From NCBI GenBank assembly GCA_013216015.1, contig JABSOI010000019.1, positions 42,316-106,315 of the forward strand: a DNA stretch of 64,000 bases. The letters are read 5' to 3'. Within the stretch, counting starts at the first letter, position 1, and the number at the start of each line of letters is the position of its first letter. The DNA is from Alteromonadaceae bacterium. Its GTDB lineage: Bacteria > Pseudomonadota > Gammaproteobacteria > Enterobacterales > Alteromonadaceae. Below the pieces are notes generated by a model. That model was not told the origin of the DNA, ran no database searches, and saw nothing but the letters and a program-made list of their open reading frames with translations. Shown one piece after another: positions 11,576 through 52,450 of the stretch. A program made the position numbers and the translations under genes.

Positions 11576-11677
11576 GGATGGGTTAGCCGCAGGCGTAACC
11601 AATAAAAACACCTGCTAATCATATGTTTACTGAGTGCTCACTAAATGTGATGGGTTACCCCGTTGGTTAACTCATCC
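11576..11677. repeat. R1 element (about 105 bp; both ends are hairpins GATGGGTTA…TAACCCATC)
   Basis: Near-identical copies at 19018-19129, 25945-26046 (degenerate) and 39939-40050. Confidence 0.7.
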
Positions 11678-19017: not shown

Positions 19018-19129
19018 GTAGGATGGGTTAGCCGAAGGCGTAACCCATCAAACTACAGATTTTACCTGCGTAATTAAACAGTTGGCTGCCGTTAAATGAT
19101 GGGTTACGCCGTGGGCTAACCCATCCTAC
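19018..19129. repeat. R1 element
   Basis: TIR hairpins GGATGGGTTAGCCGAAGGCGTAACCCATC / GATGGGTTACGCCGTGGGCTAACCCATCC. Confidence 0.7.
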
Positions 19130-19134
19130 AACTG

Positions 19135-19282
19135 TTGCTGACTCATTAAGTTGTTATTTTTCAAACTTGTAGTTCGCACATTTATGTGCGCCTTAAAGTA
19201 ATGCGTGGATAAATCCACGTTCTACCCATTGATCGAATAAATTTACATGGATGTACTCTTCTCGGTGTTTAAATTTTAACAG
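19135..19282. repeat. R2 element (about 145 bp; palindromes GCGCACATTTATGTGCGC and CGTGGATAAATCCACG)
   Basis: Copies at 39729-39876 and 40067-40214. Here it lies directly 3' of R1. Confidence 0.7.
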
Positions 19283-33788: not shown

Positions 33789-33935
33789 AGAATGACTAAG
33801 AACCCAAAATCAATGACCAATGAGGTGAGGTGGCTGATTAACTCTTTTCAGCTAAATAGAGACGTTGGTCATGGAAATAATCGTGTTGGTCAATTAGCTG
33901 TTTGTTAATATATTTCACTGTGCTTTACTGTTTTT

Positions 33936-33990
33936 CAATTAGCAATTAGCAATTAGCAATTAGCAAATAACAAATAACAAATAGAAAATA
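33936..33990. repeat. Heptanucleotide SSR (CAATTAG)x4 then (CAAATAA)x2 in the divergent promoter region
   Basis: Lies 33-90 bp upstream of the ABC ATPase start. Confidence 0.8.
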
Positions 33991-34022
33991 CAAAAAGTGA
34001 ATAAACAAAGGGGTGAATAATA

Positions 34023-34904
34023 ATGCTGATGATTTCCAACCTGAATAAAACCTATGATAACGGTGTTAAGGCTCTCGTAGATATTAATTTAACGATAAAG
34101 CAGGGCATGTTTGGTTTACTGGGTCCTAACGGTGCAGGAAAATCGACCCTGATGCGAACTTTGGCAACATTGCAAAGTCCAGACAGTGGTGAAATTCTGT
34201 TCAATGGTCATAACATTCAGCATGATCCGCAAGCGGTGCGCAGCCACCTTGGTTATTTACCGCAGGAATTTGGTGTATACCCAAAAATATCTGCCTTTAA
34301 TTTGCTAAATCACTTTGCTATTTTAAAGGGATTAACCGATAAAGTGACACGGCTTGAACAAGTTAATGCGCTATTGCAGCAAACTAATCTTTATCAACAC
34401 AGGAAAAAAGCAGTCAGCAGCTTTTCCGGTGGTATGAAGCAGCGGTTTGGTATCGCACAGGCGCTGCTGGGAACACCAAAATTGGTGATTGTTGATGAAC
34501 CTACAGCAGGTTTGGATCCCGAAGAACGTAATCGGTTTCATAACGTATTGGCAGACATCAGCGAAAATACCATAGTGATCTTGTCTACCCATATTGTGGA
34601 AGATGTCAGCAACCTTTGTCCCGATATGGCGATCATGGCTGCAGGTTCTATTATCAAACAAGGGCCACCGCAAAAACTATTGGCTCAGCTGGCTGGAAGT
34701 ATTTGGCGTAAGCATGTCAACAAGCAGGAGATCAGCGAATACCAGCAACAATTCAAGGTGATCAGTCAGCGGCTGGTGGCGGGCAAGGTTCAGCTGCATG
34801 TGCTGAGTGAAAACTGCCCTGCGGCAGGTTTTGAACCGGTACAGGCGGATCTGGAAGACTTGTATTTCTCTGCGATTAATGGCATCGCGGCCAGAGGAAA
34901 TTAA
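34023..34904 (+). CDS. ABC transporter ATP-binding protein
   Basis: Walker A GPNGAGKST. Signature FSGGMKQR. Walker B LVIVDEPTAGLD. H-loop. Confidence 0.9.
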   Translation: MLMISNLNKTYDNGVKALVDINLTIKQGMFGLLGPNGAGKSTLMRTLATLQSPDSGEILFNGHNIQHDPQAVRSHLGYLPQEFGVYPKISAFNLLNHFAILKGLTDKVTRLEQVNALLQQTNLYQHRKKAVSSFSGGMKQRFGIAQALLGTPKLVIVDEPTAGLDPEERNRFHNVLADISENTIVILSTHIVEDVSNLCPDMAIMAAGSIIKQGPPQKLLAQLAGSIWRKHVNKQEISEYQQQFKVISQRLVAGKVQLHVLSENCPAAGFEPVQADLEDLYFSAINGIAARGN

Positions 34905-34905
34905 T

Positions 34906-37900
34906 ATGATGTTATCTTTGCTTAAATTTGAATGGCAGCTGCATTCCCGACAACCAGTATTTATGCTCGGGCTATTGGTCTGTGTTTTTTTTGGTGGTTT
35001 TTTAATTCAAAATCAATCGGTAGATTCAGATGTTTTGGTGGCTGGTCCCTATAACATGGCAAACAGTATCTGTATTCTGGCGTTAATGATAGTACCTTTT
35101 TTAGTTGGTGCATTTACTGGTAATGCCATTGTCAGAGACCGTAATGCCAGAATTACAGAACTGATATTCAGTACGCCCATAACCAAAATGCACTACCTAT
35201 TGTCAAGATGGTTGGGTCTGGTGGCTATCAGTAGTCTGGTATTTACATCTGCCATTATTGGTATTTTAGTCAGCTTGTTATTTTCCGACACTGGTGAAAT
35301 TGGCTTTGCCCATACTTTGTGGAGTTTGTTGTGGCCCTTGATAATTTTGATATTGCCAGGTATCGCGCTGCTGTCTAGTATATTGTTTGCAGTGGGTTTA
35401 TTCAGTAATCAAAACATTGCAGTATATATTGTCGCTGTCATAATTTTTTTGCTCTATCAATTATTGGCGGTCTATTCAGGTTCGCCGCTAATGGCTAATC
35501 CTATTGCACCCGACGAGACGCTAAAACAAATACTTTCTGGTATTGATCCTTATGGTGCCACCTCGTTTTTTGAACAGGTAAAATACTGGAGTCCAACGCA
35601 GCGTAATAGCCAGTTTTTTGAGTTAAAGGGGATGCTGTTATATAACCGGGTGGGGGTATTATTACTGTCTGTGGTTATTTTAGCTTTGTGTTATCGCAAG
35701 TTTGACTTTAAGTTAGCTAAGCATAAGACAGCCTCGAAAAGTAAAGCCGGCATTATTGAAAAATCGACTGTAGCAGAAATACAATACCGATATCAGCCCG
35801 TGCAACCCAATACCGGGATTAAGGCCAGCTGGCTGGCTTTTACTGAGCAATGTAAACTGGAATATTTATCAACCCTGAAAACGCGGGTGTTTTTTGCTGT
35901 ACTCGTTTTTTGGACTGTTGTGTTAGTGACCGAAATAATCGAAGGCCTTTCGTCACTTGAAAATTTGGGAACCACTCCAATTGCGTCCACCGCAGAGGCC
36001 TTGTGGCGCTTTCAATATGATGTTTTACCACGTTTTATCACCCTGTTTTTAGTCTATTTCGTGGCAGAAATGGCTTGGCGTGACGAAGAGAACAATGTCG
36101 CTAGTTTCATATATTCCAGCCCAGTTGCGAATATTAGTTTGTTTTTTGCCAAACTGATTGCATTACTGTTGATCCCCGTTACTTTTATAACTATTGCAAT
36201 TGGAATTTCATCCGGTTTACAAGTGATATACGGGGGGCAGGTTGAATGGTCATTATATTTGTCGCTCTATTATTATTCGGGACTGCCTATGGTGTGTATA
36301 GCGGCACTTTGTTTGTTTATTCACAGTGTCAGCCCTAATAAATTTGTCGGCATGAGTATTAGCTTTTCTCTGGTGATATTGGCGATAACCTCGTTAGGTG
36401 GCCAACTGGGACTTGAACATGGGTTGTTTAAATTCTCCACCAGTCCGCTAATGCAATATTCCGATCTCATCGGTTTTAATTCTACCTCTGATGCCTTTAA
36501 CGGTTATATAAAATACTGGCTCAGTTTGTCTGCCGTTATGGTGTTACTGGGTTATGGTTTCTACCGTCGTGGTGTTGGCGTACCTTTAAGGTTAAGAATA
36601 CAATATATTGGTAAACAAGGTGTTGGTAAACAAGGTGTTGGTAAACAATGGGGCTATCAAGGTCTGGCGTTGATGGTAGTTTCTGTATTGGCTTCAGGCT
36701 ATTTTGGCAGTGCGGTGTTTTATCAAACCAATGAAGTTGCCCATTATCAATCATCACAAGAGAGAGTGAACTGGCGTGCGGAGTATGAGCGTAAATATGA
36801 CCAATATGAACATATGCTCAGCCCGAAAGTAGTCAATATAAAAACTCACATGGCCTTGTACCCTGAGCAACACCGTTATCAAATGAAAGCTGACTTTACT
36901 TTGGTTAATTCCCACTTTGAGTCATTAAATCAGATTTTGGTCAGTACAGATGCCGATGTCCACTATCAGAATGTCGCCATTAGCGGTGCAACTCTGAGCC
37001 ATTACGACGCAGACTTTGGGCAATATTTGTTTAAATTAAATGCACCAATGTTACCTGGAGATCGCTTGCAGATGACTTTCACTGCTTCGCAAGTACAAAA
37101 TGGTTACCTGGGCCTGCAGCGAGATAACCTGATAACGCCCGGTTTCAGTTATGTACAAGCGCTGCGTTATATGCCGTTTTTTGGCTTTAACCATCATTAT
37201 CAGCTTAAATCTCCCTCGTTACGCCGGGATCAAGGTTTGCCAGAGCTGGCACCAGCATTGTCTTTAGAGCAAGCTGTTGATGAGGTTAAAGGAGACTTTT
37301 CTGCTGATTACGATTGGCTGGAATTTGAAACCGTACTGTCTACTTCGGCCGATGAAGTGGCTATAGCACCGGGTAAATTAATCAAAAAGTGGAAAAATAA
37401 TGATCGTAACTACTACCACTATAAAACAGCCGGACCGATCAGAAATGTGATCAGCTATATATCCGGCCGTTATAAGATGGCCAGCCGATTCGTAGACGGC
37501 ATTGAGTTACAAGTTTATTATCACGCAGAACATCAGGATAATGTTGAACATACCCTGGATGCCATGAGTGCATCGATAAATTATGCCAATAAGCATTTCG
37601 GTCGTTATCTTGGTGAACAACTGCGTTTGATGGAAGTGCCAAGGAATTTGGGATTGTCTGGTTATGCTATGCCTGAAACCATTTTAATCTCAGAGCTTGA
37701 GGGGTTTCGTACGGATCTGAGCAATAAAGAGGCGTTTGATCAGGTATTTCGTCGAACTGCCCATGAAGTTGCCCATCAATGGTGGGGACATGGGTTGGAC
37801 AGTGCAGCTGTAGAGGGTGGTACGGTTCTGGTGGAAACATTGGCAAAATACACCGAACTAGTACTATTGGAGCAGCGTTATGGCAATGAATATGTGAGAC

Positions 37901-38559
37901 GACTGATGAAATATGAACATCGGCGTTATTTTAATGGCCGTGGTTATAGCAGTGAGCATGAGTTACCTTTGTATCGGGCCGACGCAAGATATTTGGTTTA
38001 TAGCAAAGGGGCGGTGGCAATGTATGCGCTTAAGAACATTTTGGGAGAAGAGGCTATCAACCAGGCATTGCGTCAATTAATGCAAAACCATAAATATCCG
38101 AAAATACCTGCCACAACGCTAGACCTGATAGCAGCATTGAAACAGACGACTACAGCTAATAACTATCCGGTAATTGATCGCTGGTTAAAGCAAATTATTA
38201 TTGATGATTTGTCGATAACCTCGGCCAGTTATCAGCAACTCGGCAATAGTCACTATAAAGTAAATGTTTGTCTGCAAAGTCAGCAAACCAAGGAAGACGG
38301 GCTAGGCAACAGCTTTGCGATATCGACTGAAACCACAGCATGGTTAGGGGTTTTCAGTGAACATCCTGATAACTTGATTAGCAGGGGCTCGGATAGTGCG
38401 GTATTAAAAATAGCTAAAGTGGCGGTGAAATCAGAAGGTAATTGTCTGAGTTGGACAGTCGCTGGGAAACCAACTCATATCGCCATCGATCCTTTCTATC
38501 AGAAGTTGGATCAGCAACGTGACAACAATGTATCGGTTCCGGTCTTTGCATCAAAATAG
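34906..38559 (+). CDS. ABC-2-type permease fused to M1-family zinc-peptidase domain (about 1217 aa)
   Basis: ATG 1 nt after the ATPase stop, with a GGAAA RBS. About 12 TMs in the first ~620 aa. C-terminal HEVAHQWWGH…E zinc site and GYAMPE in place of GAMEN. Confidence 0.8.
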   Translation: MMLSLLKFEWQLHSRQPVFMLGLLVCVFFGGFLIQNQSVDSDVLVAGPYNMANSICILALMIVPFLVGAFTGNAIVRDRNARITELIFSTPITKMHYLLSRWLGLVAISSLVFTSAIIGILVSLLFSDTGEIGFAHTLWSLLWPLIILILPGIALLSSILFAVGLFSNQNIAVYIVAVIIFLLYQLLAVYSGSPLMANPIAPDETLKQILSGIDPYGATSFFEQVKYWSPTQRNSQFFELKGMLLYNRVGVLLLSVVILALCYRKFDFKLAKHKTASKSKAGIIEKSTVAEIQYRYQPVQPNTGIKASWLAFTEQCKLEYLSTLKTRVFFAVLVFWTVVLVTEIIEGLSSLENLGTTPIASTAEALWRFQYDVLPRFITLFLVYFVAEMAWRDEENNVASFIYSSPVANISLFFAKLIALLLIPVTFITIAIGISSGLQVIYGGQVEWSLYLSLYYYSGLPMVCIAALCLFIHSVSPNKFVGMSISFSLVILAITSLGGQLGLEHGLFKFSTSPLMQYSDLIGFNSTSDAFNGYIKYWLSLSAVMVLLGYGFYRRGVGVPLRLRIQYIGKQGVGKQGVGKQWGYQGLALMVVSVLASGYFGSAVFYQTNEVAHYQSSQERVNWRAEYERKYDQYEHMLSPKVVNIKTHMALYPEQHRYQMKADFTLVNSHFESLNQILVSTDADVHYQNVAISGATLSHYDADFGQYLFKLNAPMLPGDRLQMTFTASQVQNGYLGLQRDNLITPGFSYVQALRYMPFFGFNHHYQLKSPSLRRDQGLPELAPALSLEQAVDEVKGDFSADYDWLEFETVLSTSADEVAIAPGKLIKKWKNNDRNYYHYKTAGPIRNVISYISGRYKMASRFVDGIELQVYYHAEHQDNVEHTLDAMSASINYANKHFGRYLGEQLRLMEVPRNLGLSGYAMPETILISELEGFRTDLSNKEAFDQVFRRTAHEVAHQWWGHGLDSAAVEGGTVLVETLAKYTELVLLEQRYGNEYVRRLMKYEHRRYFNGRGYSSEHELPLYRADARYLVYSKGAVAMYALKNILGEEAINQALRQLMQNHKYPKIPATTLDLIAALKQTTTANNYPVIDRWLKQIIIDDLSITSASYQQLGNSHYKVNVCLQSQQTKEDGLGNSFAISTETTAWLGVFSEHPDNLISRGSDSAVLKIAKVAVKSEGNCLSWTVAGKPTHIAIDPFYQKLDQQRDNNVSVPVFASK

Positions 38560-39679: not shown

Positions 39680-39728
39680 CCCTAGTCTTCAAAGGATCTT
39701 AATTGAATTGGTTATGTCCCAGTTATCT

Positions 39729-39876
39729 GTTGCTGATTCATTAAGTTGTTATTTTTCAAACTCGTAGTGCGCACATTTATGTGCGCCTTAAAGTAATGCG
39801 TGGATAAATCCACGTTCTACGGATTGCTCGAATAAATTTACATGGATGTGTTCTTCTCGGTTTTTAAATTTTAACT
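39729..39876. repeat. R2 element
   Basis: See 19135-19282. Confidence 0.7.
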
Positions 39877-39938
39877 GTGTCTTCTGTCGTAATTCATTGT
39901 TTTATCTGTATTTATATCTAAGTTAAAGATTTCAGCGC

Positions 39939-40050
39939 GTAGGATGGGTTAGCCGAAGGCGTAACCCATCAAAACATAAGTTTATCACGTGGTTAACGCC
40001 TGGGTGGTCACCAAATGTGATGGGTTACGCCGTTGGCTAACCCATCCTAC
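39939..40050. repeat. R1 element
   Basis: See 19018-19129. Same 5' flank (ttcagcgcgta) as that copy. Confidence 0.7.
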
Positions 40051-40066
40051 AACTATTGTAGACACA

Positions 40067-40214
40067 TTTAACTGTGGCTGACTCATTAAGTCGTTATTTT
40101 TCAAGCTTGTAGTGCGCACATTTATGTGCGCCTTAAAGTAATGCGTGGATAAATCCACGTTCTGATTGCTCGAATAAATTTTCATGGATGTGTTCTTCTC
40201 GGTTTTTAAATTTA
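40067..40214. repeat. R2 element
   Basis: Third R2 copy, giving an R2-R1-R2 cluster. Confidence 0.7.
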
Positions 40215-40261: not shown

Positions 40262-43200
40262 TTATTTATCTTTTGATAATTCCCTGCTTATTTTTTGAAT
40301 ATGTGATTCTGAATTATTGCTCCTGTTTTGAGAGGAAACATTAAGTGTCTTTAAAGTATCTATCATTGCTAAATCAACATCTTTACGGCTTTGTAAAGTG
40401 GTTACCAGTGGCGTTAAGAAAGATTCAAGGCTTTGAGAAAACAAAGATAAAGTTTTTTCTAATTCAGTATTCTCAGTATTTTCGGGTTTTTCTACATTCA
40501 CTTGCAGTTTAAGTTTAGCGAGAGTTTCGTTCAGTTGCTCTAAACCACCTGATTGTGGCTGCTGTAATGCGCTGCCAATTGTAGATAGGCCTTGTTGTAA
40601 TAAAGATATTTGACTGGCAATAGTTGCCAGGGGATCACCACCATCCCCTAAGTTCTGATGACGAACAAAGTCGGCTTTAATTTGCTTCCAGCGCTCTGTT
40701 TGTTCTTTGGTTTGCTTATTACGTAATTCAGCCAGTTTCAGCAGATTTTCTTCAGCACCTACCGTTAAGGTTTGCGCTTCGCCACGGTAATGATCACTAA
40801 TAAGCTGTTCTAACTCTTCATCTGTCATCACAGGCACTACTTTTTCAGCCATTTTATTCATATTGCGGTAACTACCCTGCAATTTAAATGGTGGTTCAGT
40901 GCGATATTTATCGTCTTGGGCAGCCGAGGCAATATACTGTTCATTTGCCTTGAGTACGGTTTGCTGGATTTTACGGATCCGTTTGATCACAGCCACAATT
41001 TCATTAACTTCAGCTTGTGAATAGCCATACTTTAATTCGTTCAGCGAAATTGGTCCGCCATCTGCCATTTGAACCAGCTGATACAAATCATCCATATCAC
41101 GGGTAGCAAGTGGCGCTATATAAGAGTTACTGGTTAAACTGTTTTCAATGAAACTTAATGAAAATTCATGTTCACGGCCACTTAAAGTATCCCCTAAATT
41201 GTAAATGTCGGCACGGTTTGCCAGCATATCAGGAATAGTAAATGCCTCACCTGATTCCGTATACGGATTGCCCGCCATTACTACGGCAAACTTTTTACCG
41301 CGCATATCATAAGTTTTGCTTTCACCGTTCCAAACGCCGTCTACCCGTCTTGAGCCATCACAAAGGGAAATGAATTTTTGTAGAAACTCAGGATTAGTAT
41401 GCTGAATGTCATCTAGGTATAACATTACGTTATTGCCCATTTCAAAGGCTAAATTGATTTTTTCAACTTCACTTTTTGCTGTCGAGTTATTTGCCTGCGC
41501 GGGATCTAATGACAATTGGTCATGACCAATAGAAGGGCAGTTCACTTTGACGAATGTCATCCCCAGTTTACTGGCCACATATTCAATAAGTGTTGTTTTA
41601 CCGTAACCCGGAGGCGAAATAAGTAATAATAATCCCATTAAATCGGAACGTTTATTATTGCCTGCAGCCCCAATTTGTTTGGCTAAATTGGTGCCGATAA
41701 TAGGGAAGTAAACATCGTTGATTAATTTATTACGAACAAAAGAAGCTAATGCACTAGGTTTAAACTCATGTAATTTCAGTCGTTTACGCTGTTTCTCAAT
41801 TACTTGCTGTTTAAGTTGATGGAAATTAGTAAAAGCGGGTACTTGTTCATTGCAAAAACGTCGAAGTCGAGTGATGAATTCCTGGTAACTGATCAATATT
41901 TCACGTTCTTTAATACGTGCATGTTGACCAAGCAAGCCAGTAATTTTACCCTCGGTATTTGCCGTTGAGGAATAAAATTCCATTTGATTAGTGAATGTCA
42001 TGAAGCTTGCCGCTTCAATAAGCAAATCACTATCAACACCGTTTTCCTGATGATTGGCAAATGATTGTAACCAGCCAAGATGCAATTGATATTTCAGCGC
42101 CAGACTTGAGCATGCCCCCAGGGCAGAGTTTAATTGCGATGTCAGACTTTTATGTTTTAATTGAGTTTGCAGTTGTCTGACGAGTTCAGCACTGGCTTCT
42201 TTGTTTACAAATGTCTGTTTGCCCTGAGCGAATTCTTGGATCAGGTAGTCGGCTGCTAATGAAACATCACAACTTAACCAAGATTGCTCTGTTACAAGAC
42301 ATGCTAAAGCTTGTGCCAGTTCACCACAAAGTTGAGGACGTAATTGACTCGAACCAAAAGTTTCTTCCATAAGATGTAAATTAAGACAACGATTCACCAG
42401 ATCCTGACGGGTTTTCTCATTGAGTTCAGTTTGAAAATAAACCAAAGCTAATCGTCGCTCTGGTGCAGCATAAGCAAGTAAGCCTACGGATGCACGTAAA
42501 GTTAATAATTCAGCTAAAATTAAGCTGGCATCTGAGTCGTGCACGCCTTTGTCATAACCTTCCTGATAACGAGGTTCGGCAAATTTTTGTATAAGTTTAA
42601 GCAGTTTTTTATTATTCAGCGCATCAGTCAGCTCGTTAACTGCTGCTACGCCGTTAGCTTCAGCTTCAAATAAAATGCTGGCGGCTAAATATTCTGCCCG
42701 ATATACCTGATCACTTTCTGAAATTAAATTTTGTTGCCACAAATATTCACTGCCGGCGAATAAAGTTGGATCCAGTGATTCAAAATAATCACTGCCGCTG
42801 ATGTGCAATACCATTGCCTGACCCCGTGGCAATAACGTTAATTCTAATTTTTGTCGGTTAACAGAAAATTGATGTTCGCCAATTTTAACCAGGCTGCCAT
42901 CGGCTGAATAAATGTCGGTTTTATCACGCAGTGCGCGAATGCCTTGCTCTTTAGCATTTTTTAACTGGGCATCAATATCGTCCGCACGTACGTTGTCATC
43001 TAAACTGCGTAACTGTTCGCTGAGTGCACGTAATTTGGAGACCATAGGATCGGCGGCGAAATAACTATTGAGTTTGTCTTGATCATTGAAAGCCTGGCTT
43101 CGACGATTAACTCCGGCAATAATGCGTTCTGCTGCGGTCATTAAATTTAAACAACGACGTTGCTGAGCATCCATAAGTTGCTGTTTATGTTGTTCAAAGT

Positions 43201-45550
43201 TGTCGTATATTTCGTCTCTTTTAGCCAGAATTTCATTATAAAATTCATCGTAATCGCTAAATTGGCTTTCCAAATTTTCTAATTGGATCAGTAATTGAGA
43301 CAGTTGTTGGTCACATTCTTGAGGTGAATCACTGGCATTTAAAGCACTGGTGACACTTTGAGTCAGCAGCTTGAAACGTGCACCAAATTCAGCGCGGGCT
43401 TCTTCTGAGCCAACACTTTTTGTTGCAATATCAGCACTGGCTTTAACACGGTTTATTTGACTAAATATGCTGGAGATATCTTCTAAAATACGGGTGCGCT
43501 GACGGCTGTCGTCAATATTCAGCGATAACATGGTATGGTTCAGCAGTTCTAAGCCCTGTACCAGTTCGTCTACAGCTGTGCGAATAGGTTTTAATGCGGT
43601 AATTGACTGGGCTTGTGCTACTTCAGCATCTAATTGGGCAATTTTATTTTCGTAAGGAGCGAATGCTTGATCTTGCTGTAGAAAATCAGCCGTGGCTTGG
43701 CTTAAATTTGCTGACAAAGATGCTAATTCAGCCGCCATCAGGTCAATTTCAGTTAAATCGACATATTTCAGTTCTTTGTGAGAAATTAACTTGCCATTAA
43801 AGTTTGCTAGTTCTGACAAACCTTCAACATATTGTTGTGCGTTGTCAAAGACAGGTGCTTTCATTTGATTAATGAGCTGGTCAAGTTTTTCTCTTGCTTG
43901 CAACATAACCTGATCAGATTTATTTTTGATGCTGGTTACTTTTTCAAATTCATCCAGCACCAATTCTGAGGTGGTTACCACTTGTTTTAATATTTGATTA
44001 AGTTGAGCTAATTCAGGATCGGTTAACCAATGATATTTATCCAGTAATTGGCCTGATTGTTTTACTAAATCATTAAAATGGTAGGCACTGGGTTCCTGTG
44101 TTGAAATTAGCCTTGCAACACCGTATAAATCAGAAATACCACGGACTAATTCTGGGTTGCCAATTTTACCGAAGAAACTATTATCGGTTGGTTGCAAACT
44201 GGCGTGTTCTTCACTGCAAAAAGGAGTTTGCCATATTTGCATGGCATGTACCCGTGAAGGCTCTTCTTCGGCATTAAAAACGATAGCTCTACCGTTAATA
44301 TGTAAACTTTGCCCATGACCGTAAATTGGATTTTGCAGGGTTCGGGTGATCAAATTATAACTGAATAAGGCGTATTGACCTTCGTTCGGTTCATAAAAAA
44401 TATAGAGTACGTCTTCGCCATTTGGTGATTTAACGACACGATGTAATTGCAGATCTTTTGCGCTGTCATCAAAGCTTTTGTTTTCGCCACTTTGTAAGTA
44501 ATAGCCGCCGGGAAAAATAATACCGTGATCTTCCGGTAACTGAATACAGGCATGGGCGATGGCGTCTTGCCTGATAACTTTTTGGGTTTTTGAATTATAA
44601 ATCAGATGACGTGTTTGTTGCTCTCGGTAAGGCTTTATTTTAAGCAGAATTAACTCGCCAACTTTCGCATAGTGAATTTGTGCGTCATCCAAAGATTGAT
44701 GTTGGTCATCAACATTTTCTGAATAAATGCCTTCGCCGTCTTCGGTATTGTTTTCTATTTTTATGGTTAATGTGCCACCAATAGCTTCAACAAACAGGGT
44801 ATCAAATATATTAAAATGCGGATGTTTGCCTTTTTCTTGTTGCTCACGTGAAACTTTGCACCATTCAAAATCAAAGTTTTCCGGTTGCTTTATATCTCGT
44901 TCACCTCGGTTATCAATGTATTTAACCTGGTTGTCGGCATCAATACCCCAGCGAAAAACGCGTATATCATCCAGTCTTTCGCCAATACGGAAAATGGCGA
45001 ATACCTTGCTACCTTGACGATACACATGGCTAAGATAGGTTTTTTTATAATATGTATATAATTCGTCAAAATCGCGGACGAATTCCGGGTGTTCTAAAAA
45101 GCTGCCTTGCAGTGGCAGATCGATAATTTCCAACTCACTATTTTGCGGGTTATCAGGAGGTGAATTACCAGGAGGTGAATTATCAGGAGGTGAATTACCA
45201 GGAGGTGAATTACCAGAAACAGAAGCAGTGGTGCTTTCTTTTACTTGATGCAAACTAAAAACATCAGCAACGGTGATATTACGTTTTAATCCTAAAAAAA
45301 CGTTATAGCCAAAAAGTAAAGTATCACCAATTGCAGCAATATCCCGTGCGACACAATTATGTTCAGTACGCACCCGAACCCGTGCCGCCACTTTCATGTC
45401 GGTTGAGCCAAATGTCGACATTCGCTGGTCATTAAGCTGTTTTAGTTGAGTGTTTAACTCTTCACCAAGTGCAGTTAACCTACGCTGAATAAGCTCATAT
45501 GATCCGCCTTCTGCAACGGCTTGATTAGTGACTTTGTCCTTATCCGACAT
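40262..45550 (-). CDS. Giant (1762-aa) protein with a single MoxR/AAA_5-like AAA+ ATPase module near aa 1200-1400, coiled-coil regions and SPPGN/SPPDN tandem repeats
   Basis: Walker A LISPPGYGKTTL. Walker B VMLYLDDIQH. Long N-terminal region without recognisable motifs. Intact ORF. Confidence 0.7.
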   Translation of the reverse strand: MSDKDKVTNQAVAEGGSYELIQRRLTALGEELNTQLKQLNDQRMSTFGSTDMKVAARVRVRTEHNCVARDIAAIGDTLLFGYNVFLGLKRNITVADVFSLHQVKESTTASVSGNSPPGNSPPDNSPPGNSPPDNPQNSELEIIDLPLQGSFLEHPEFVRDFDELYTYYKKTYLSHVYRQGSKVFAIFRIGERLDDIRVFRWGIDADNQVKYIDNRGERDIKQPENFDFEWCKVSREQQEKGKHPHFNIFDTLFVEAIGGTLTIKIENNTEDGEGIYSENVDDQHQSLDDAQIHYAKVGELILLKIKPYREQQTRHLIYNSKTQKVIRQDAIAHACIQLPEDHGIIFPGGYYLQSGENKSFDDSAKDLQLHRVVKSPNGEDVLYIFYEPNEGQYALFSYNLITRTLQNPIYGHGQSLHINGRAIVFNAEEEPSRVHAMQIWQTPFCSEEHASLQPTDNSFFGKIGNPELVRGISDLYGVARLISTQEPSAYHFNDLVKQSGQLLDKYHWLTDPELAQLNQILKQVVTTSELVLDEFEKVTSIKNKSDQVMLQAREKLDQLINQMKAPVFDNAQQYVEGLSELANFNGKLISHKELKYVDLTEIDLMAAELASLSANLSQATADFLQQDQAFAPYENKIAQLDAEVAQAQSITALKPIRTAVDELVQGLELLNHTMLSLNIDDSRQRTRILEDISSIFSQINRVKASADIATKSVGSEEARAEFGARFKLLTQSVTSALNASDSPQECDQQLSQLLIQLENLESQFSDYDEFYNEILAKRDEIYDNFEQHKQQLMDAQQRRCLNLMTAAERIIAGVNRRSQAFNDQDKLNSYFAADPMVSKLRALSEQLRSLDDNVRADDIDAQLKNAKEQGIRALRDKTDIYSADGSLVKIGEHQFSVNRQKLELTLLPRGQAMVLHISGSDYFESLDPTLFAGSEYLWQQNLISESDQVYRAEYLAASILFEAEANGVAAVNELTDALNNKKLLKLIQKFAEPRYQEGYDKGVHDSDASLILAELLTLRASVGLLAYAAPERRLALVYFQTELNEKTRQDLVNRCLNLHLMEETFGSSQLRPQLCGELAQALACLVTEQSWLSCDVSLAADYLIQEFAQGKQTFVNKEASAELVRQLQTQLKHKSLTSQLNSALGACSSLALKYQLHLGWLQSFANHQENGVDSDLLIEAASFMTFTNQMEFYSSTANTEGKITGLLGQHARIKEREILISYQEFITRLRRFCNEQVPAFTNFHQLKQQVIEKQRKRLKLHEFKPSALASFVRNKLINDVYFPIIGTNLAKQIGAAGNNKRSDLMGLLLLISPPGYGKTTLIEYVASKLGMTFVKVNCPSIGHDQLSLDPAQANNSTAKSEVEKINLAFEMGNNVMLYLDDIQHTNPEFLQKFISLCDGSRRVDGVWNGESKTYDMRGKKFAVVMAGNPYTESGEAFTIPDMLANRADIYNLGDTLSGREHEFSLSFIENSLTSNSYIAPLATRDMDDLYQLVQMADGGPISLNELKYGYSQAEVNEIVAVIKRIRKIQQTVLKANEQYIASAAQDDKYRTEPPFKLQGSYRNMNKMAEKVVPVMTDEELEQLISDHYRGEAQTLTVGAEENLLKLAELRNKQTKEQTERWKQIKADFVRHQNLGDGGDPLATIASQISLLQQGLSTIGSALQQPQSGGLEQLNETLAKLKLQVNVEKPENTENTELEKTLSLFSQSLESFLTPLVTTLQSRKDVDLAMIDTLKTLNVSSQNRSNNSESHIQKISRELSKDK

Positions 45551-45751
45551 TTAAAACTCCATGAAATCTTTTGTATTTTTACACTTTAGTACTTTTACAG
45601 TTTTGTACTTCAGTACTAATATAATTGTTAGGTCGCTGTTTGCTTACATAAAAAGCTTCAATAAATAGCTTCGACAGCACGTTTCGAAAAAATCTTTTCG
45701 TGAACAGGCATGTCGAAGTTAACTTTTTACGACCTACGCAAGATGACGCGT

Positions 45752-47734
45752 TTATTTATCGTCAGAACCTTTTTGGCTGACTAAATTCAATAAACTTGCC
45801 AAGGCTCCTTTTTGTGAATCATCGGCATTATTCAAGGTTGCAAGTAATTTTGCCATATTGAAATTTTTCAATGTTTCACTTGAGTCAGAAGCTCCAGCCA
45901 ATACACCTTTAAGGTCTTCAACAATATTACGATCACCATTAAGGTGGTCTTTGAATAATGTTTGCACTGTCTCGCTTTCATTCACAAATGCATCAAGTGA
46001 TTTACCAACAGTGATAGATTTCATAAATTGATTCAGGAATTGGCCGTCGCCACCCATAATATTAATATTGGCTTCATGTAATGCTGCACATAATACCTGT
46101 GCTTGTTTCTCTGCCAATTCAACACTGTTGTCTATTTTGGCAAGGGTCAGTTCCCGCTCCTGGTTCAAACGTAAACCGAAGGTTTCAAACTCACGAGCTG
46201 AATCTGACATTGAATTGAGCACTTCTTGTTTCTCACGTAATCCAGTCGCTTCGGCTAAGGCTTTTTCTTTAATGCCTTTTGCTTCAGCCGTTAGTTTAAG
46301 CTCAAGGCCTTTAGCTTCGGCTTCGCCTTGTCTTTCATGGGCTTCGGCTTGTGCTAAGGTTACCTGAGCATCAGCAAGACCTGCTGATGCGGTTTCTGCT
46401 TGGTTACCTTCGGCTAATATTTTTTTAGATTCAGCTTGTTTGACCGCCGCTTTCAATTCTGCATCAGCAATGGTTTGAATTTTACGCGCGATATGTTCAG
46501 CGGCTTGTTCTTCTGCTTTTGCTGATTCAATGTCTTTTACTAATGATTCTTCGGCTTGAGCTTTGGCTCGGATAACTTGCTCTTCTTTTAAGCGGTTTGC
46601 TTCTGAAACAACGCGTAAGTCTTTAATCAACTCTTCTTCTTGTGCGACACTTTTTTCAACGGAAATTCGTTCACGTTGTACTTCGGCTATATTTTTTCTT
46701 TCAACTTCTAACGCTTTTTCTTTATTGATGCGTAATGTTTCCACTTCTTTTTCTCGAGCAATAGCTTCAACCTGACGAGCGCGTTTTACTTTCTCTTCTT
46801 CAATGGCAACCGCTCTCAGTCGATTCTGTTCGGCAATATCCGCTTCACGTTGTTTATTTTGTTCTGCTACTTCGATAGTTTGTTCCGTAGCAATACGTGC
46901 CTGTTCAGATTTAGAACGTTCCTCCTGAACAATTTTGGCTGTTTCGGCTTCTTCACGCGCTTGAACTGTGGAAATTTCCCGTTCTTGTCTTGCTGTTGCG
47001 TCAGCTAACTGACGATCTAATTCCAGACCTTTTTCTTTTGCTTCAATGTTCTGCCGTTTTATTTTTATTTCTTCCTGACGTTTTAAATCGTTTGTTTCAA
47101 CACTTTGCAAGGCCGTTAACTCGGTAATTCGACGAATACCTTCAGCATCCATAATGTTGTTTGGATCAAGATCATGTATTGAAGTTTGTTCAAGAAAATC
47201 AATAGCTACATCTTCTAATACATAACCCGATAAATCTTGTCCAATAACCTCTTTAATTTTGTCTCTGAAGTTATTACGTTGAGTAAATAATTCGGTGAAG
47301 TTAAGTTGTTTGCCAACTGTTTTTAAAGCTTCAGAAAACTTAGCTTCAAATAACTCCTGCAAAGTTTCAGGGAAAGAAGAACGTTCACAGCCGACTTGTT
47401 TAGCAACCCGTAATATATCTTCTTTCGTTTCGTTCACCCTTATGTAAAAAGTGATAGTTATGTCAGCTCGAATATTATCCTGACAAATTAGTCCTGAACG
47501 ACCTTTACGCTCAAGCATCATGCGTTTAGTTGAAATATCCATAATTTCTTTTTTATGGATAATAGGAATAACCATGCCACCTGTGGTACTAATTTCGGGT
47601 TCTGCGCGTAGTTTGTTAATAATAAGTGCTTGTCCTTGCTCTACCTTGATATAAAACTTAGCGATCATGATCAAAAGTGAAAAGACGAACAATACGCCTA
47701 TGCCAATCGCTAAATAAAGTGGTTCCATTACCAT
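45752..47734 (-). CDS. Flotillin-like SPFH/band-7 protein (YqiK-like) with long E/A/K-rich coiled coil
   Basis: N-terminal TM plus SPFH domain (…IINKLRAEPEISTTGGMVIPIIHK…). About 300-aa coiled-coil tail. Confidence 0.85.
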   Translation of the reverse strand: MVMEPLYLAIGIGVLFVFSLLIMIAKFYIKVEQGQALIINKLRAEPEISTTGGMVIPIIHKKEIMDISTKRMMLERKGRSGLICQDNIRADITITFYIRVNETKEDILRVAKQVGCERSSFPETLQELFEAKFSEALKTVGKQLNFTELFTQRNNFRDKIKEVIGQDLSGYVLEDVAIDFLEQTSIHDLDPNNIMDAEGIRRITELTALQSVETNDLKRQEEIKIKRQNIEAKEKGLELDRQLADATARQEREISTVQAREEAETAKIVQEERSKSEQARIATEQTIEVAEQNKQREADIAEQNRLRAVAIEEEKVKRARQVEAIAREKEVETLRINKEKALEVERKNIAEVQRERISVEKSVAQEEELIKDLRVVSEANRLKEEQVIRAKAQAEESLVKDIESAKAEEQAAEHIARKIQTIADAELKAAVKQAESKKILAEGNQAETASAGLADAQVTLAQAEAHERQGEAEAKGLELKLTAEAKGIKEKALAEATGLREKQEVLNSMSDSAREFETFGLRLNQERELTLAKIDNSVELAEKQAQVLCAALHEANINIMGGDGQFLNQFMKSITVGKSLDAFVNESETVQTLFKDHLNGDRNIVEDLKGVLAGASDSSETLKNFNMAKLLATLNNADDSQKGALASLLNLVSQKGSDDK

Positions 47735-47858
47735 GTGTATTTCCTCTTATAAAAACGGGCTGCCACGGTTGTCGTGGCAACTTAAACTAATATTTTGTAA
47801 ATGTATCGGTGCTTAATATGCTGGTGCTTAAATTATTGATGCTTAAATTTTTGAATAA

Positions 47859-48497
47859 TTATTGTGGGTAGGGGGCGACAATATAAGTATGATTGTCTTC
47901 TAGGTATGTTATCAATAAGACTTTGTCACCCATCTTTAACGAGTGTTCGCCCTCGCAGCGAACATCAAGTAAAATTTCAGCGCCTTCGTTGAATACCCGT
48001 GCCTGACCAAAAGTCTCGCTTACTGTGCCTGTAGCTATTGTGGCTTCTTTACCGACCAAATTTTGACTGGTGGTTGTTTCAACACTTTTAAACATGCCTT
48101 TAAGTGGGCGAATGATTATTGCTGTAATAGGTAAGGAAACTAAAAATACAATAAAGTCACTCACTGTGCCTATTAAGTAATAAAGCCAGCCTTCAGGCAG
48201 CCATGTTAAAATGTAAAATTGCAGGTAAAAGCTGATCAGCCAGCAAACAAGAATAATAATACTGATCACTAAAGTGAAGGGTACGCCAGTTAAACCGAAG
48301 GTGAGTAATAGTCCGGTTAATCCGCCAATACTTGTGTCGACATCGACATCAGCGTCTATATCCAGGTCGACATCACCAGCAAAATCGAGATCAATAAGAC
48401 CTAGCATTCCAACAAGCCAATAGATAACGACAATGCCAAGTAAGGTGGTGTATATAACAGTAGGGAATTGGGAAGCTACTTCGAATAACTGTGTCAT
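47859..48497 (-). CDS. NfeD/YqiJ-like inner-membrane protein
   Basis: Acidic DLDFAGDVDLDIDADVDVD segment. Several TMs. C-terminal OB-like beta region. Directly upstream of the flotillin gene. Confidence 0.6.
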   Translation of the reverse strand: MTQLFEVASQFPTVIYTTLLGIVVIYWLVGMLGLIDLDFAGDVDLDIDADVDVDTSIGGLTGLLLTFGLTGVPFTLVISIIILVCWLISFYLQFYILTWLPEGWLYYLIGTVSDFIVFLVSLPITAIIIRPLKGMFKSVETTTSQNLVGKEATIATGTVSETFGQARVFNEGAEILLDVRCEGEHSLKMGDKVLLITYLEDNHTYIVAPYPQ

Positions 48498-48845
48498 GAT
48501 TCATCCTTAAACATTTTATAACGGTCATTGTTTTGTTAAATTATTTGAAAATAATAGCTGTAATTTATTCTGATAATTTTACTGTGAGTCCAGAGACTCT
48601 ACTCACCATACGCGAATGACATATTATGTCAATAGGCTGAAGTGTGAATATTTCACTGTGAATATTAATGGGAGACAAATTATCATACTTGTTTTGAAAA
48701 ATCTTCGAAAATTTGTGTAAACACAATAAATAATCAATCTAATTTTCTCTGAGGGTTTCTATAGCATTCTTTAGATTATTAACGGTATGATGGGATGAAT
48801 TAGAAATTTACAGACAATAAAACCCAAGAAAGGATATATAAAAAA

Positions 48846-49394
48846 ATGAATTGTACAAGTTGTAAAATGGGTGAATTAATGCCAAGTTTCATTGATGGGC
48901 AATTCAGGGCCCATACATGTTCAAATTGTTATGGTAATTGGATTCTTATAGAAGACTATGTGTCATGGAAAGAGCGTAATCCGCAATATACATTTGACGA
49001 TAGTGTAACCTGTGAAATTGAAGAAACTACAACCGCATTATTATGTCCTGTAACCGGCACAATTATGAGAAAATTCCGCCTTTGTTCAAGTACTACGCAC
49101 CGTATTGATTATAGCGCTGGTGTGGGGGGTGTTTGGTTAGATAAAGGTGAATGGGAGTTGCTTAAAGAAAAAGGATTAGCGGGTTCATTAAATGCCATGT
49201 TGACAGCACACTGGCAACGAAATATCCGTATAAATAATACCAAAGAAAATTTTGCTGAAATTTATAAAGATAAATTTGGTCAAGAAACATATAACAAAAT
49301 AAAAGAACTTAGGGAATGGTTATACCAACAGCCAAACAAAGCTGATTTACGTGCTTACATATTAGCTGAAGATCCGTATTCAGCAGAAAAGTAA
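48846..49394 (+). CDS. Double zinc-ribbon (TFIIB-type) protein
   Basis: CTSC…CSNC and CPVTG…GVWLDKGEWELL motifs. Confidence 0.5.
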   Translation: MNCTSCKMGELMPSFIDGQFRAHTCSNCYGNWILIEDYVSWKERNPQYTFDDSVTCEIEETTTALLCPVTGTIMRKFRLCSSTTHRIDYSAGVGGVWLDKGEWELLKEKGLAGSLNAMLTAHWQRNIRINNTKENFAEIYKDKFGQETYNKIKELREWLYQQPNKADLRAYILAEDPYSAEK

Positions 49395-49445: not shown

Positions 49446-49868
49446 ATGAGAGGTGCAGGTGGTACGGCTGGTGGCTTAGGTCATTTTTTTATTGGTCTCA
49501 TAATGATGTGTGGCGGTTTTTATATGCTGCTCAATGCTATTTCTGTCACTTCTAGTTTTGGTATGGGAATGCGATTGTATGGATTTTCTGGGGCGGGTGG
49601 AAATTATCAAATTACCAGCGGTATGATAATGATCCCTTTTATATTTGGTTTGGGGCTTATATTTTATAATAGTAAAAATATATTTGGCTGGTTGCTGGCG
49701 CTTGGTTCAATGACCGGCCTTATCTTTGGCGTTATTTCGTCAATACGTTTTACTTTCAAGACCATGAGTTCTTTTGATTTAATAGTGATACTCGTTTTAG
49801 CATTTGGTGGTTTAGGTTTATTTCTTCGTTCGCTAAAATCACTGGATGCAAATTTACCAGACGAGTAA
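49446..49868 (+). CDS. Small multi-TM membrane protein
   Basis: 140 aa, 4 hydrophobic helices. Confidence 0.4.
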   Translation: MRGAGGTAGGLGHFFIGLIMMCGGFYMLLNAISVTSSFGMGMRLYGFSGAGGNYQITSGMIMIPFIFGLGLIFYNSKNIFGWLLALGSMTGLIFGVISSIRFTFKTMSSFDLIVILVLAFGGLGLFLRSLKSLDANLPDE

Positions 49869-50125: not shown

Positions 50126-52450
50126 TTGATGTTTAGGCGTTCTCCAAAAGAGTATTTATTACTGGTTTTTACTTGTTTTACTGGTATTGCTATATTGCCC
50201 TTTATTGTTATTCGTGTTTCTCAACAAGACTGGATCACTGCTACCGTTGATACCATTATCTCGTGTGGAATGGCGATTATTTTTGCTTATGTATATAAAA
50301 CGAGAAAAATAGAAAAACCAAATAAAACTTTAGTTTTATTGGCAATAATTGGTGTGCTTGTAACCGTGTATGTGAAAGGTGTTTCGCATGTTTATTGGGT
50401 TCACCCAGCAATTATAGCAACCTATTATTTATATCAAACACGTAGGGCGGTTGTTATTAACGCATTGTTAGTGTTAATAATATCGATATTTATTTCCCCC
50501 CAAGTAGAGATTATTCAACTTTTAACGATTTTTACTACACTGGTAATGACAAGTATTTTTGCTTGTGTTTTTGCAGTAAGCGCAGGCAAGCAACATAAAG
50601 TTCTTATTGAAAATGAAAAGATCAGTCGTTTACGTAATAAAACACTTGAACTCATTGTTAACTCAGAAAAATTATCAGAAATTTTATATTCCATCGTACA
50701 AAATGTTGAGCTTGAATATGATGATATGATGTGTAGCATTTTGTTACTTGATGATTCAGGTAAGCATTTACTTGGTGGCGCTGCTCCGAGTTTACCTGAC
50801 TTCTATAATCAAGCTATTAACGGCGTTGAAATTGGTGACGGCGTTGGTAGCTGTGGTACAGCGGCTTATTTAGGCAAAAGAGTTGTTGTTGAAGATATTA
50901 TGACTCATCCATATTGGGCGCCATGGACTGATTTGGCAGCTAAAGCTGGACTAGGCTCGTGCTGGTCGGAGCCTATTATTAATTCACATGGTATTGTACT
51001 GGGTACTTTTGCCATTTATCACAAAGAGGTAAAACAACCGTCGTCGAAAGATTTTGAATTAATAAGTCAATTTGCCCACTTAGCCAGTATTTCCATTGAG
51101 AAAGAAAAAAGTAGTCAAATGATATGGCAACAGGCGAATTTTGATAATCTTACTGCTTTACCTAATCGCCGTATGATGTATGAACATTTAAAACAAGCAA
51201 TTAACAGTGCCAAACGCAATAAGAGTAAAGTCGCTGTGGCATTTCTGGATCTAGATGAATTTAAATATGTAAATGACACGCTAGGGCATGATATTGGTGA
51301 TGAATTATTAAAAGAAACAGCGATACGTATAAAAAACTGTATAAGAGACAATGATACGGTTGCGCGCCTGGGAGGTGATGAATTTGTTATTATTCTCTCT
51401 GATTTAAATGACATGGAAGGTGTTGAACATGTCGCTGATAAGTTACTGAAACAATTATCTCTTCCTTATTATTTGAATGAGGAAGTGGTACATAGTTCCG
51501 TTAGCATTGGCATCACAATTTATCCTGATGATACGCTTACAGTTGAATCGCTATTAAAAAATGCCGATCAAGCTATGTATGGTGCTAAAAATTTAGGCCG
51601 CAATAATTATCATTATTTTACCGAGAGTATGCGAGACAATGCATTAAGCAGAATGCAGTTGATTCAAGATCTACGTGACGCGATCAAAAATGAAGAGTTT
51701 TTTGTTGTATATCAACCTATTGTTAACTTACAAACGGGTAAAACAATTAAAGCGGAAGCACTTATTCGTTGGCAACACCCGTCCAGAGGGATTGTAAGTC
51801 CGTTAGATTTTATTCCATTAGCTGAAGAAACTGGGCTGATTATTGATATCAGCGATTGGATGTTCCAACAAATTTTACCTTTAGTTACCAAATGGAAACA
51901 GAATTATCATCCTGATTTTGAAGTCAGTATTAACACTTCCCCACTTCAATATAGGGATGATACAGGAAACATAAGGCAATGGATTAAACAGCTTAAAAAC
52001 AATAACCAAAATTCAACAGGTATTGCGTTTGAAATTACTGAACATTTATTGATGGAAAATAAAGATGACGTCGCAAAAATTTTAAAAGCAGCACAAAGTG
52101 AGGGGATCGCTATATCTATTGACAATTTTGGTACAGGGTATTCTTCGTTGTCATATTTACAGAATTACCAAACGGATTATTTGAAAATTGATATGAGTTT
52201 CGTGCAGAAACTGTCAACGAAATATGAAGATCTTGCTTTATGTGAAGCTATAGTTGCAATGGCCAATGTATTGAATATAAGGACTATTGCTGAAGGTGTT
52301 GAAACACAAGAACAAAAAGAGATACTCTGCAATATGGGGTGTGATTATGGGCAAGGTTATCTATTTTCAAAACCATTAATCGAAGAAGAGTTTGAATCAT
52401 TTTTAGGAATAAATGAAAGCAGTAAATTAGATTGTGAAATTGCTTTATAA
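50126..52450 (+). CDS. Membrane sensor-GAF-GGDEF-EAL c-di-GMP turnover protein
   Basis: 5-6 N-terminal TMs. GAF-like segment. RLGGDEFVI (GGDEF). EALIRW…DNFGTGYSS…EGVE (EAL). Confidence 0.85.
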   Translation: MMFRRSPKEYLLLVFTCFTGIAILPFIVIRVSQQDWITATVDTIISCGMAIIFAYVYKTRKIEKPNKTLVLLAIIGVLVTVYVKGVSHVYWVHPAIIATYYLYQTRRAVVINALLVLIISIFISPQVEIIQLLTIFTTLVMTSIFACVFAVSAGKQHKVLIENEKISRLRNKTLELIVNSEKLSEILYSIVQNVELEYDDMMCSILLLDDSGKHLLGGAAPSLPDFYNQAINGVEIGDGVGSCGTAAYLGKRVVVEDIMTHPYWAPWTDLAAKAGLGSCWSEPIINSHGIVLGTFAIYHKEVKQPSSKDFELISQFAHLASISIEKEKSSQMIWQQANFDNLTALPNRRMMYEHLKQAINSAKRNKSKVAVAFLDLDEFKYVNDTLGHDIGDELLKETAIRIKNCIRDNDTVARLGGDEFVIILSDLNDMEGVEHVADKLLKQLSLPYYLNEEVVHSSVSIGITIYPDDTLTVESLLKNADQAMYGAKNLGRNNYHYFTESMRDNALSRMQLIQDLRDAIKNEEFFVVYQPIVNLQTGKTIKAEALIRWQHPSRGIVSPLDFIPLAEETGLIIDISDWMFQQILPLVTKWKQNYHPDFEVSINTSPLQYRDDTGNIRQWIKQLKNNNQNSTGIAFEITEHLLMENKDDVAKILKAAQSEGIAISIDNFGTGYSSLSYLQNYQTDYLKIDMSFVQKLSTKYEDLALCEAIVAMANVLNIRTIAEGVETQEQKEILCNMGCDYGQGYLFSKPLIEEEFESFLGINESSKLDCEIAL

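Follow-up and report, generated by a model that had tools for sequence, protein, structure and literature searches.

Why would a bacterial flotillin share its operon with an AAA+ protein of 1762 residues? The question is raised by a three-gene locus in a 64-kb stretch of DNA from contig JABSOI010000019.1 (the window, to whose positions all coordinates refer). Three co-oriented open reading frames (ORFs) lie on the minus strand, exactly at the coordinates and with the lengths reported in a preliminary description of this DNA:

47859–48497, minus strand: YqiJ-type NfeD-like gene, operon gene 1; ORF of 212 amino acids (aa), orthologue of BacC (PA3730) of Pseudomonas aeruginosa
45752–47734, minus strand: flotillin gene, operon gene 2; ORF of 660 aa, orthologue of BacD/PaFlo3 (PA3729)
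40262–45550, minus strand: giant AAA+ ATPase gene, operon gene 3; ORF of 1762 aa, orthologue of BacE (PA3728)

The locus represents the three-gene short form of an operon widespread in bacteria and composed of a yqiJ-like gene, a flotillin gene and a DUF3686 AAA+ gene. The cassette in the window is a Colwelliaceae member of this operon type, which is documented and functionally uncharacterised. We think it somewhat probable that the giant protein is a cytoplasmic AAA+ remodeller of flotillin and PspA-type membrane assemblies during envelope stress.

The gene identities proposed earlier, a YqiJ/NfeD-like protein, a YqiK-like flotillin and a protein with a single MoxR/AAA_5-like AAA+ module, are borne out by profile, BLASTP and Pfam matches. 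The 212-aa protein contains an acidic DLDFAGDVDLDIDADVDVD stretch and three hydrophobic segments, corresponding to about three transmembrane (TM) segments. As a single sequence it stays below threshold against Pfam YqiJ_N and YqiJ_OB (E 0.06–0.08). A 30-sequence profile of its family aligns with E. coli YqiJ over the TM and OB regions (hhalign, 92% probability, E 6.7e-7), and the protein is 35% identical to P. aeruginosa BacC. We classify it by these matches as a YqiJ-type short NfeD-like inner-membrane protein with a C-terminal OB-like domain. The full-length 660-aa protein has no match in Pfam or NCBIfam; with the coiled coil removed, residues 1–228 match Band_7/SPFH (E 8e-11), and a match to the Flot domain is weak (E 0.01). 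In BLASTP it is 30% identical to the E. coli flotillin YqiK over 450 aa (E 3e-46), and it shares 50.6% identity with BacD. Its layout consists of one N-terminal TM segment, an SPFH/Band-7 domain at residues 30–190, a helix of about 300 aa rich in E, A, K and Q, and a C-terminal region. Residues 1–480 align without a single indel across 73 homologues. By its TM segment, Band-7/SPFH domain, coiled coil and YqiK match, this protein is classified as a flotillin.

The giant protein is 47.8% identical to BacE over its full length. Four regions can be placed on its gene:

44030–45460, minus strand: DUF3686 region (aa 31–507), comprising an N-terminal helix and then a beta-rich propeller-like domain; Pfam E 2e-189
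45150–45216, minus strand: 15-nt tandem repeat encoding NSPPG/NSPPD pentapeptides; from Tandem Repeats Finder (TRF) and comparison with close homologues
43424–43669, minus strand: DUF7902 (aa 628–709), inside a long helical region at aa ~459–877; Pfam E 2.4e-23
40676–41683, minus strand: AAA+ module (aa ~1290–1625); from AAA/AAA_5 matches, invariant motif columns and Foldseek

The Pfam layout is thus DUF3686, DUF7902, AAA (E 1e-9) and AAA_5 (E 1.3e-7). The N-terminal ~1150 residues, previously considered unplaceable, contain the two DUF families; Pfam assigns the protein to DUF3686, DUF7902 and AAA, and the NCBI product name is "DNA repair ATPase". The GYGKTT Walker A and LYLDD Walker B noted before are in place, as SPPGYGKTT at residues 1312–1320 and LYLDD at residues 1377–1381, and are invariant across an alignment of 67 diverse full-length homologues that are 31–71% identical to the query. 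The invariant or near-invariant motifs in this alignment are SPPGYGKTT, LYLDDIQH, GNPY, PDMLxNRAD and FKLQGSYRxM; in the window protein the last two read PDMLANRAD and FKLQGSYRNM. The motifs agree with the AAA+ patterns GxxGxGK[ST] for Walker A and hhhhD[DE] for Walker B, on which its placement in the superfamily is based, and the Walker B carries Asp-Asp instead of the usual Asp-Glu with its catalytic Glu. A C-terminal tail of ~350 aa had been described; conservation in fact reaches residue ~1620, where it is marked by the invariant FKLQGSYRxM, and variability is confined to the last ~140 aa.

AlphaFold2 (AF2) models of the giant protein, calculated in two pieces, are of moderate confidence (mean pLDDT 71.7 and 65.9). 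They place an N-terminal helix at residues 17–47, a beta-rich propeller-like domain at 53–441, long helices at 459–877, a small beta domain at 887–926, a helical domain at 951–1290 and the AAA+ core at ~1290–1625, followed by a helical C-terminus of low confidence. No convincing TM segment was found. In Foldseek, the nearest folds to the AAA+ part are the MoxR-type proteins NorQ and CbbQ, then HslU, dynein AAA and MCM, with target-normalised TM scores of 0.4–0.49. A sequence search of solved structures matched the giant protein to Rix7 at the P-loop only, and returned no match for the 212-aa or the 660-aa protein. The domain at residues 53–441 is modelled with ~22 strands (pLDDT mostly 65–85), and the N-terminal part gives weak matches to 7-bladed propellers, including the clathrin terminal domain and IFT-A (TM score ≤0.2). 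The models support the description "propeller-like" and nothing further. A protocoatomer-like N-terminus, with a propeller followed by a solenoid, was considered and rejected: the clathrin, IFT-A and nucleoporin matches have TM scores ≤0.2 and root-mean-square deviations (RMSD) >17 Å, and the helices are long rather than short solenoid repeats.

The Pro-rich pentapeptides encoded by 15-nt DNA repeats, also noted previously, are present at 45150–45216 (period 15 nt, 4.5 copies by TRF). They lie in a predicted disordered loop (pLDDT <50 at residues 107–138). There are four units in the window, two in a 99%-identical homologue (P0001), degenerate copies in a 91%-identical relative and none in other genera. 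That near-identical strains differ in copy number suggests that slippage occurred recently in this loop. As a lineage-specific element of variable copy number, the repeat was rejected as a family feature.

Is the giant protein functionally linked to the two membrane proteins beside it? The whole protein has >5000 homologues. Its N-terminal 720 aa alone gives 262 clusters at 50% identity with E≤1e-30, most members being 1600–1900 aa long, and relatives are encoded in at least 586 species genomes. From these we took the best-scoring 80 of the at least 586 genome loci, all 42–53% identical to the query, and searched the ORFs of each locus with profiles built from the window flotillin and NfeD-like proteins. 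The order NfeD-like, SPFH, giant on one strand was found in 73/74 non-redundant loci having at least 3.2 kb of upstream DNA. The end of the SPFH gene lies <1 kb from the start of the giant gene in 71 loci, with a median gap of 93 nt; 21 gaps are ≤30 nt and in six loci the two genes overlap. These loci are spread over Gamma-, Beta- and Zetaproteobacteria, Myxococcota, Actinomycetota and Acidobacteriota, and plasmid matches add Bacteroidota and Deinococcus. The flanking genes vary, even between related genera, around a constant cassette. The preliminary description had proposed linkage from adjacency, and this synteny check, set in advance, is strongly positive across several phyla. The conserved gene order therefore strongly supports, on comparative grounds, a functional linkage of the NfeD-like protein, the flotillin and the giant ATPase.

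Three loci with long gaps carry secondary insertions of transposase-like genes, a HepT toxin-antitoxin pair or surface-protein genes. The flotillin-ATPase junction is split at L024 (6009–7909) and L039 (4865–7959), by two PD-(D/E)XK transposase-like genes in one and by NYN-domain and HepT-like toxin genes in the other.

The operon itself is not new, contrary to the earlier suggestion of a candidate undescribed system: both a comparative study by Ravi et al. (2024) and work on the bacABCDEF operon of P. aeruginosa (Mace, 2008, PMC2587700; Wallart et al., 2024, PMC10948618) cover it. In P. aeruginosa the locus reads DUF2170, PspA, a 213-aa protein, a 688-aa protein, a 1746-aa DUF3686/AAA protein, PLD, YaeQ, RecJ and an M4 peptidase. 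With recJ being PA3725 and lasB PA3724, the locus is PA3732–PA3727, the bacABCDEF operon. The bacC, bacD and bacE genes are orthologous to the window genes and have the same order on the same strand, whereas bacA (DUF2170/YjfI), bacB (PspA) and bacF (PLD) have no counterpart in the window. In P. aeruginosa PA14, reverse transcription PCR (RT-PCR) products span every bac junction, demonstrating co-transcription, and BacB-F accumulate 6- to 13-fold in a bacA mutant, demonstrating co-regulation (Wallart et al., 2024; PMC10948618). Ravi et al. (2024; PMC11237479) described operons that join CesT/Tir-PspA with genes for Band-7/flotillin, YqiJ/YuaF and a novel AAA+ ATPase. According to the same study, operons of an abbreviated kind that lack PspA have the wider distribution and may use a PspA encoded elsewhere (PMC11237479). 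These operons have the same domain architectures and gene content as the window, the abbreviated form included. That study is based on comparative genomics alone and offers no mechanism. Among shorter relatives, the first two window genes share their domain types and order with E. coli yqiJ-yqiK and B. subtilis yuaF-floT; in E. coli K-12, however, yqiK is followed not by an AAA+ gene but by the sibD/ibsD locus. An account of SPFH evolution (Hinderhofer, 2009) does not mention an ATPase partner. In the literature on the bac operon and DUF3686 we found no report of what the ATPase (BacE) does, and searches for DUF3686 and PF12458 returned no papers. What we add to this record is a quantified synteny rate, a conserved promoter palindrome, a Zn-ribbon accessory gene and structure models.

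What might the ATPase act on? Flanking ORFs of the surveyed loci were clustered without bias and then compared with Pfam. A DUF2170 (YjfI, CesT/Tir-like)-PspA/IM30 pair lies directly upstream of the cassette in 29 loci and is divergent in two more, ~40% of loci. PspA is thus attached in 31 of ~76 loci, and also in L089, a Hymenobacter plasmid with the order Tir-chaperone, PspA, DUF1449 (YqiJ), flotillin, ATPase. A PLD-family gene was matched in 13 loci and in the majority directly follows the ATPase gene; a rhomboid gene was matched in nine, downstream of the ATPase gene in eight and overlapping its stop codon in four. In Colwellia psychrerythraea (L086) a co-oriented gene for a 521-aa PLD protein begins 270 nt downstream of the ATPase gene; the window has none. 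In pQBR103, a megaplasmid of P. fluorescens SBW25, the cassette (L090, 87437–102356) directly follows DUF350, DUF1190 and glutathionylspermidine-synthase-like genes. These neighbours are of the E. coli yjfL/M/C types, and the arrangement joins the two PspA-linked operon classes of Ravi et al.

Taken with the neighbouring genes, the AAA+ fold suggests the following scheme. The YqiJ/NfeD-like protein and the flotillin would assemble into an SPFH scaffold at the cytoplasmic face of the inner membrane. Their 1762-residue partner would be a soluble AAA+ machine of MoxR/AAA_5 type, docked on the YqiJ-flotillin scaffold through its propeller-like N-terminal domain and long helical region. Its ATPase may remodel, assemble or disassemble membrane-bound protein polymers: flotillin and, where it is present or encoded elsewhere, the YjfJ-type PspA, a bacterial relative of ESCRT-III. 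Such remodelling would form part of an envelope or membrane stress response. Our analysis shows the gene identities, the conservation of the operon, its recurrent attachment to PspA and the AAA+ fold, whereas we infer that the proteins bind each other, what the substrate is and in which direction it is remodelled; Ravi et al. reached the same general conclusion from gene context (PMC11237479). One parallel is ESCRT-III/Vps4. The likeness consists of the repeated attachment of the cassette to PspA, a member of the ESCRT-III superfamily, which suggests ATP-driven polymer remodelling. Unlike Vps4, the giant protein has no MIT or Vps4 oligomerisation domain detected by Pfam and belongs to a different AAA+ group, and PspA is absent from the window.

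Several points weigh against this scheme. All six frames of the 64-kb window were searched by hmmsearch with HMMs derived from 31 loci (threshold E≤0.01), and no PspA, YjfI, PLD or rhomboid gene was found. The window therefore does not hold the full PspA-linked (bacABCDEF-type) form, and a PspA partner would need to be encoded elsewhere. Deletion of paFlo3 (BacD) in P. aeruginosa PA14 lowers biofilm by only ~20% with little other effect (PMC13086221). The Asp-Asp Walker B motif makes the rate, or even the existence, of ATP hydrolysis uncertain. The modelled architecture carries the moderate pLDDT of both pieces and the weak propeller matches given above, and the survey covers the best 80 loci, all within 42–53% identity to the query.

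Could the ATPase instead act on the contents of the microdomain rather than on its scaffold? It would then chaperone, extract or mature client membrane proteins concentrated by flotillin and YqiJ, by analogy with MoxR maturation or with FtsH inside the HflK/C cage, minus the protease domain. The comparison with MoxR ATPases (NorQ, CbbQ, RavA) is grounded in the best fold matches, which are to the maturation factors NorQ and CbbQ, the AAA_5 match, and a GNPY sensor-1 region preceded by a beta-hairpin. The giant protein is, however, about six times longer than these enzymes, with a propeller and coiled-coil N-terminus and DD in place of DE in Walker B. The VWA/MIDAS adaptor that usually partners MoxR is also absent, both among the conserved flanking ORF clusters and in Pfam scans of the window neighbours. 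HflK/C-FtsH provides a precedent for an SPFH cage around an AAA+ enzyme (PMC13220708), and an SPFH scaffold with a hexameric AAA+ enzyme at the inner membrane may be common to both systems. FtsH, however, is membrane-anchored and has an M41 protease domain, whereas in the giant protein no Peptidase_M41 match, no other protease domain and no convincing TM segment were found, and its AAA+ module lies nearer to MoxR/AAA_5 than to the classic clade. Client handling would also be consistent with S. aureus FloA-NfeD, which stabilises unfolded membrane proteins (PMC11222466), and with the rhomboid protease gene that overlaps the ATPase stop codon in several loci. The operon has no conserved client gene, and the repeated PspA link points to polymer remodelling instead. 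We consider action on clients unlikely.

A role in defence, in which the cassette would sense or execute membrane damage as an anti-phage or abortive-infection module, appears quite improbable. PA3728–PA3732 are upregulated in every phage-infected P. aeruginosa sample (PMC12041424), the operon is at times followed by PLD-family nucleases or phospholipases, and large AAA+/STAND-like proteins with repeat domains are generally common in defence systems. Phage induction, however, is also the namesake of the PspA-type envelope stress response. Searching the three proteins with PADLOC (PADLOC-DB 2.0) gave nothing beyond a weak P-loop match to mad8 (E 0.0013). The 50,697 phage records searched contain no homologue of the giant protein; among 72,556 plasmid records just 13 do, mostly megaplasmids or chromids. 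The flanks are ordinary metabolic and regulatory genes and not defence islands, and identities of 40–50% across phyla with a fixed architecture are unlike those of fast-evolving defence genes.

That the giant protein is a DNA repair ATPase is very hard to credit: the idea comes from names (Pfam PF12458, "ATPase involved in DNA repair"; NCBI, "DNA repair ATPase") and from weak RuvB_N matches confined to the P-loop, whereas the literature searches above gave no result, Pfam detects no nuclease, helicase or DNA-binding domain, the single contiguous AAA+ module (aa ~1290–1625) is not of the SMC/Rad50/RecN ABC type and has no SMC_N or AAA_23 match, no nuclease is found among the conserved neighbours, recJ is near the operon in P. 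aeruginosa and not conserved at other loci, and the invariant neighbours are two membrane proteins. The name probably derives from coiled-coil similarity to SbcC-type proteins.

How is the cassette controlled? The following elements flank or interrupt the three genes:

48605–48632, minus strand: sigma-70-like promoter TTGACA-16-TATGGT, 5' of gene 1; promoter scan
45669–45718, minus strand: imperfect hairpin in the flotillin-ATPase spacer; fold of the spacer
48846–49394, plus strand: Zn-ribbon gene (PF13453), 182 aa, divergent; Pfam
49446–49868, plus strand: 140-aa hydrophobic ORF, probably membrane, on the same strand as the Zn-ribbon gene; homologues beside the cassette in L087 and L014

The promoter at 48632–48605 is the only good sigma-70-like candidate upstream of gene 1. 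A perfect palindrome, TGACATATTATGTCA, at 48617–48631 (TGACAT-N3-ATGTCA) overlaps its -35 element. The palindrome is unique in the window, where none is expected by chance. In 38 kb of upstream DNA from related operons its ACAT-N3-ATGT core was counted 25 times, versus three times in the remaining 1.52 Mb, an enrichment of >300-fold 5' of the first operon gene in related Gamma- and Betaproteobacteria. The core is found in 18/78 loci, often as 2–4 tandem copies (including L004, L013, L041, L047, L055, L067, L072, L080 and L085–L088). P. aeruginosa has two copies of a Pseudomonas variant, TTACATGTGA, upstream of bacA. We regard TGACATATTATGTCA as a candidate operator. A sigma-54 promoter has been proposed for the bac operon (PMC10948618). 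The upstream region of the window differs in having a sigma-70-like promoter: a sigma-54 promoter like that proposed for bacA was looked for in 48498–48845 and none was found, and window-wide matches are at chance level.

Homologues of the Zn-ribbon protein adjoin the cassette in nine other loci, and L080 adds a match to a 54-aa fragment. In L041, L047 and L055, all from Burkholderiales, the gene separates the flotillin gene from the ATPase gene, and it has this position also in L059 (Pseudomonas, a shorter ORF of 123 aa) and L056 (where the ORF call is over-extended). L001 and L086 have it in divergent orientation, L021 and L083 downstream. In B. subtilis pspA-ydjGHI, Zn-ribbon proteins are paired with an SPFH protein (Ravi et al., 2024; PMC11237479). 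The Zn-ribbon protein probably serves the cassette as an accessory component or as a regulator. It might act at the palindrome, although palindrome and gene show no consistent co-occurrence. The 140-aa ORF (49446–49868) has no Pfam match; its homologues lie divergently in L087 (Litorilituus) and 60 nt downstream of the ATPase gene in L014 (Paraglaciecola), and it is possibly an accessory gene.

The flotillin-ATPase spacer measures 201 nt (45551–45751) and, as described before, contains an imperfect hairpin, which we place at 45669–45718. The whole spacer folds with z = -4.0. No T-run follows the hairpin, which is not called terminator-like, and an Rfam scan of the window returned zero known RNAs. 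In related Colwelliaceae the spacer is 77–117 nt long and the TGGAG ribosome-binding site alone aligns. The hairpin was rejected as a conserved regulatory element, as it is not conserved even in a relative whose giant protein is 91% identical.

Other features near the cassette are recorded here as observations. Downstream of the ATPase gene, 39720–40213 contains two ~150-bp direct repeat copies, 93–98% identical and 345 bp apart, which flank a 33-nt inverted repeat with 94% complementarity. Both elements recur at 11576–11604 and 19021–19219 (~11.6 and ~19.1 kb), and therefore represent a dispersed REP/MITE-like family. A five-gene module lies beside the cassette both in the window (31351–38559) and in the Hymenobacter plasmid (L089, 9888–14875), in inverted orientation. 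Its products are a LytTR response regulator, a histidine kinase, an ABC ATPase and an ABC-2 permease, with an M1 aminopeptidase either fused to the permease or encoded after it. The two sets of proteins resemble each other closely (E 6e-106 for the ABC protein) and the module was unseen in the other ~85 loci; it could be a coincidence or a functional hint. GGDEF/EAL or EAL genes occur near the cassette in the window (50126–52450, plus strand), in L003 (15416–16180) and in L017 (13275–14513); such genes are common in these genomes and their proximity may be due to chance.

The remodelling scheme can be given a bolder form, which we hold tentatively and regard as rather doubtful. In the DUF3686 giant, flotillin/SPFH assemblies would have their first dedicated ATP-driven remodeller, Vps4-like, shared with the YjfJ-type PspA, and placed under a regulator acting at the TGACAT-N3-ATGTCA operator. 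The propeller and helical arm of the giant would dock on YqiJ-flotillin, and its AAA+ ring would drive cycles of assembly, disassembly or membrane repair. To our knowledge, flotillins are regarded as passive, ATP-independent scaffolds, and we know of no energy-consuming partner that has been characterised.

In at least 586 species genomes this operon ties a flotillin and its NfeD partner to a very large AAA+ enzyme. What this enzyme does with flotillin is a real question, already posed in 2024, while the "DNA repair ATPase" label is attached to thousands of proteins and nothing here supports it. P. aeruginosa offers a tractable model, since its BacE (PA3728) is encoded in an operon linked to biofilm formation and virulence and is listed among ATPases with recurrent mutations in cystic fibrosis isolates (PMC8190622). 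The coupling makes it testable whether bacterial membrane microdomains are actively remodelled.

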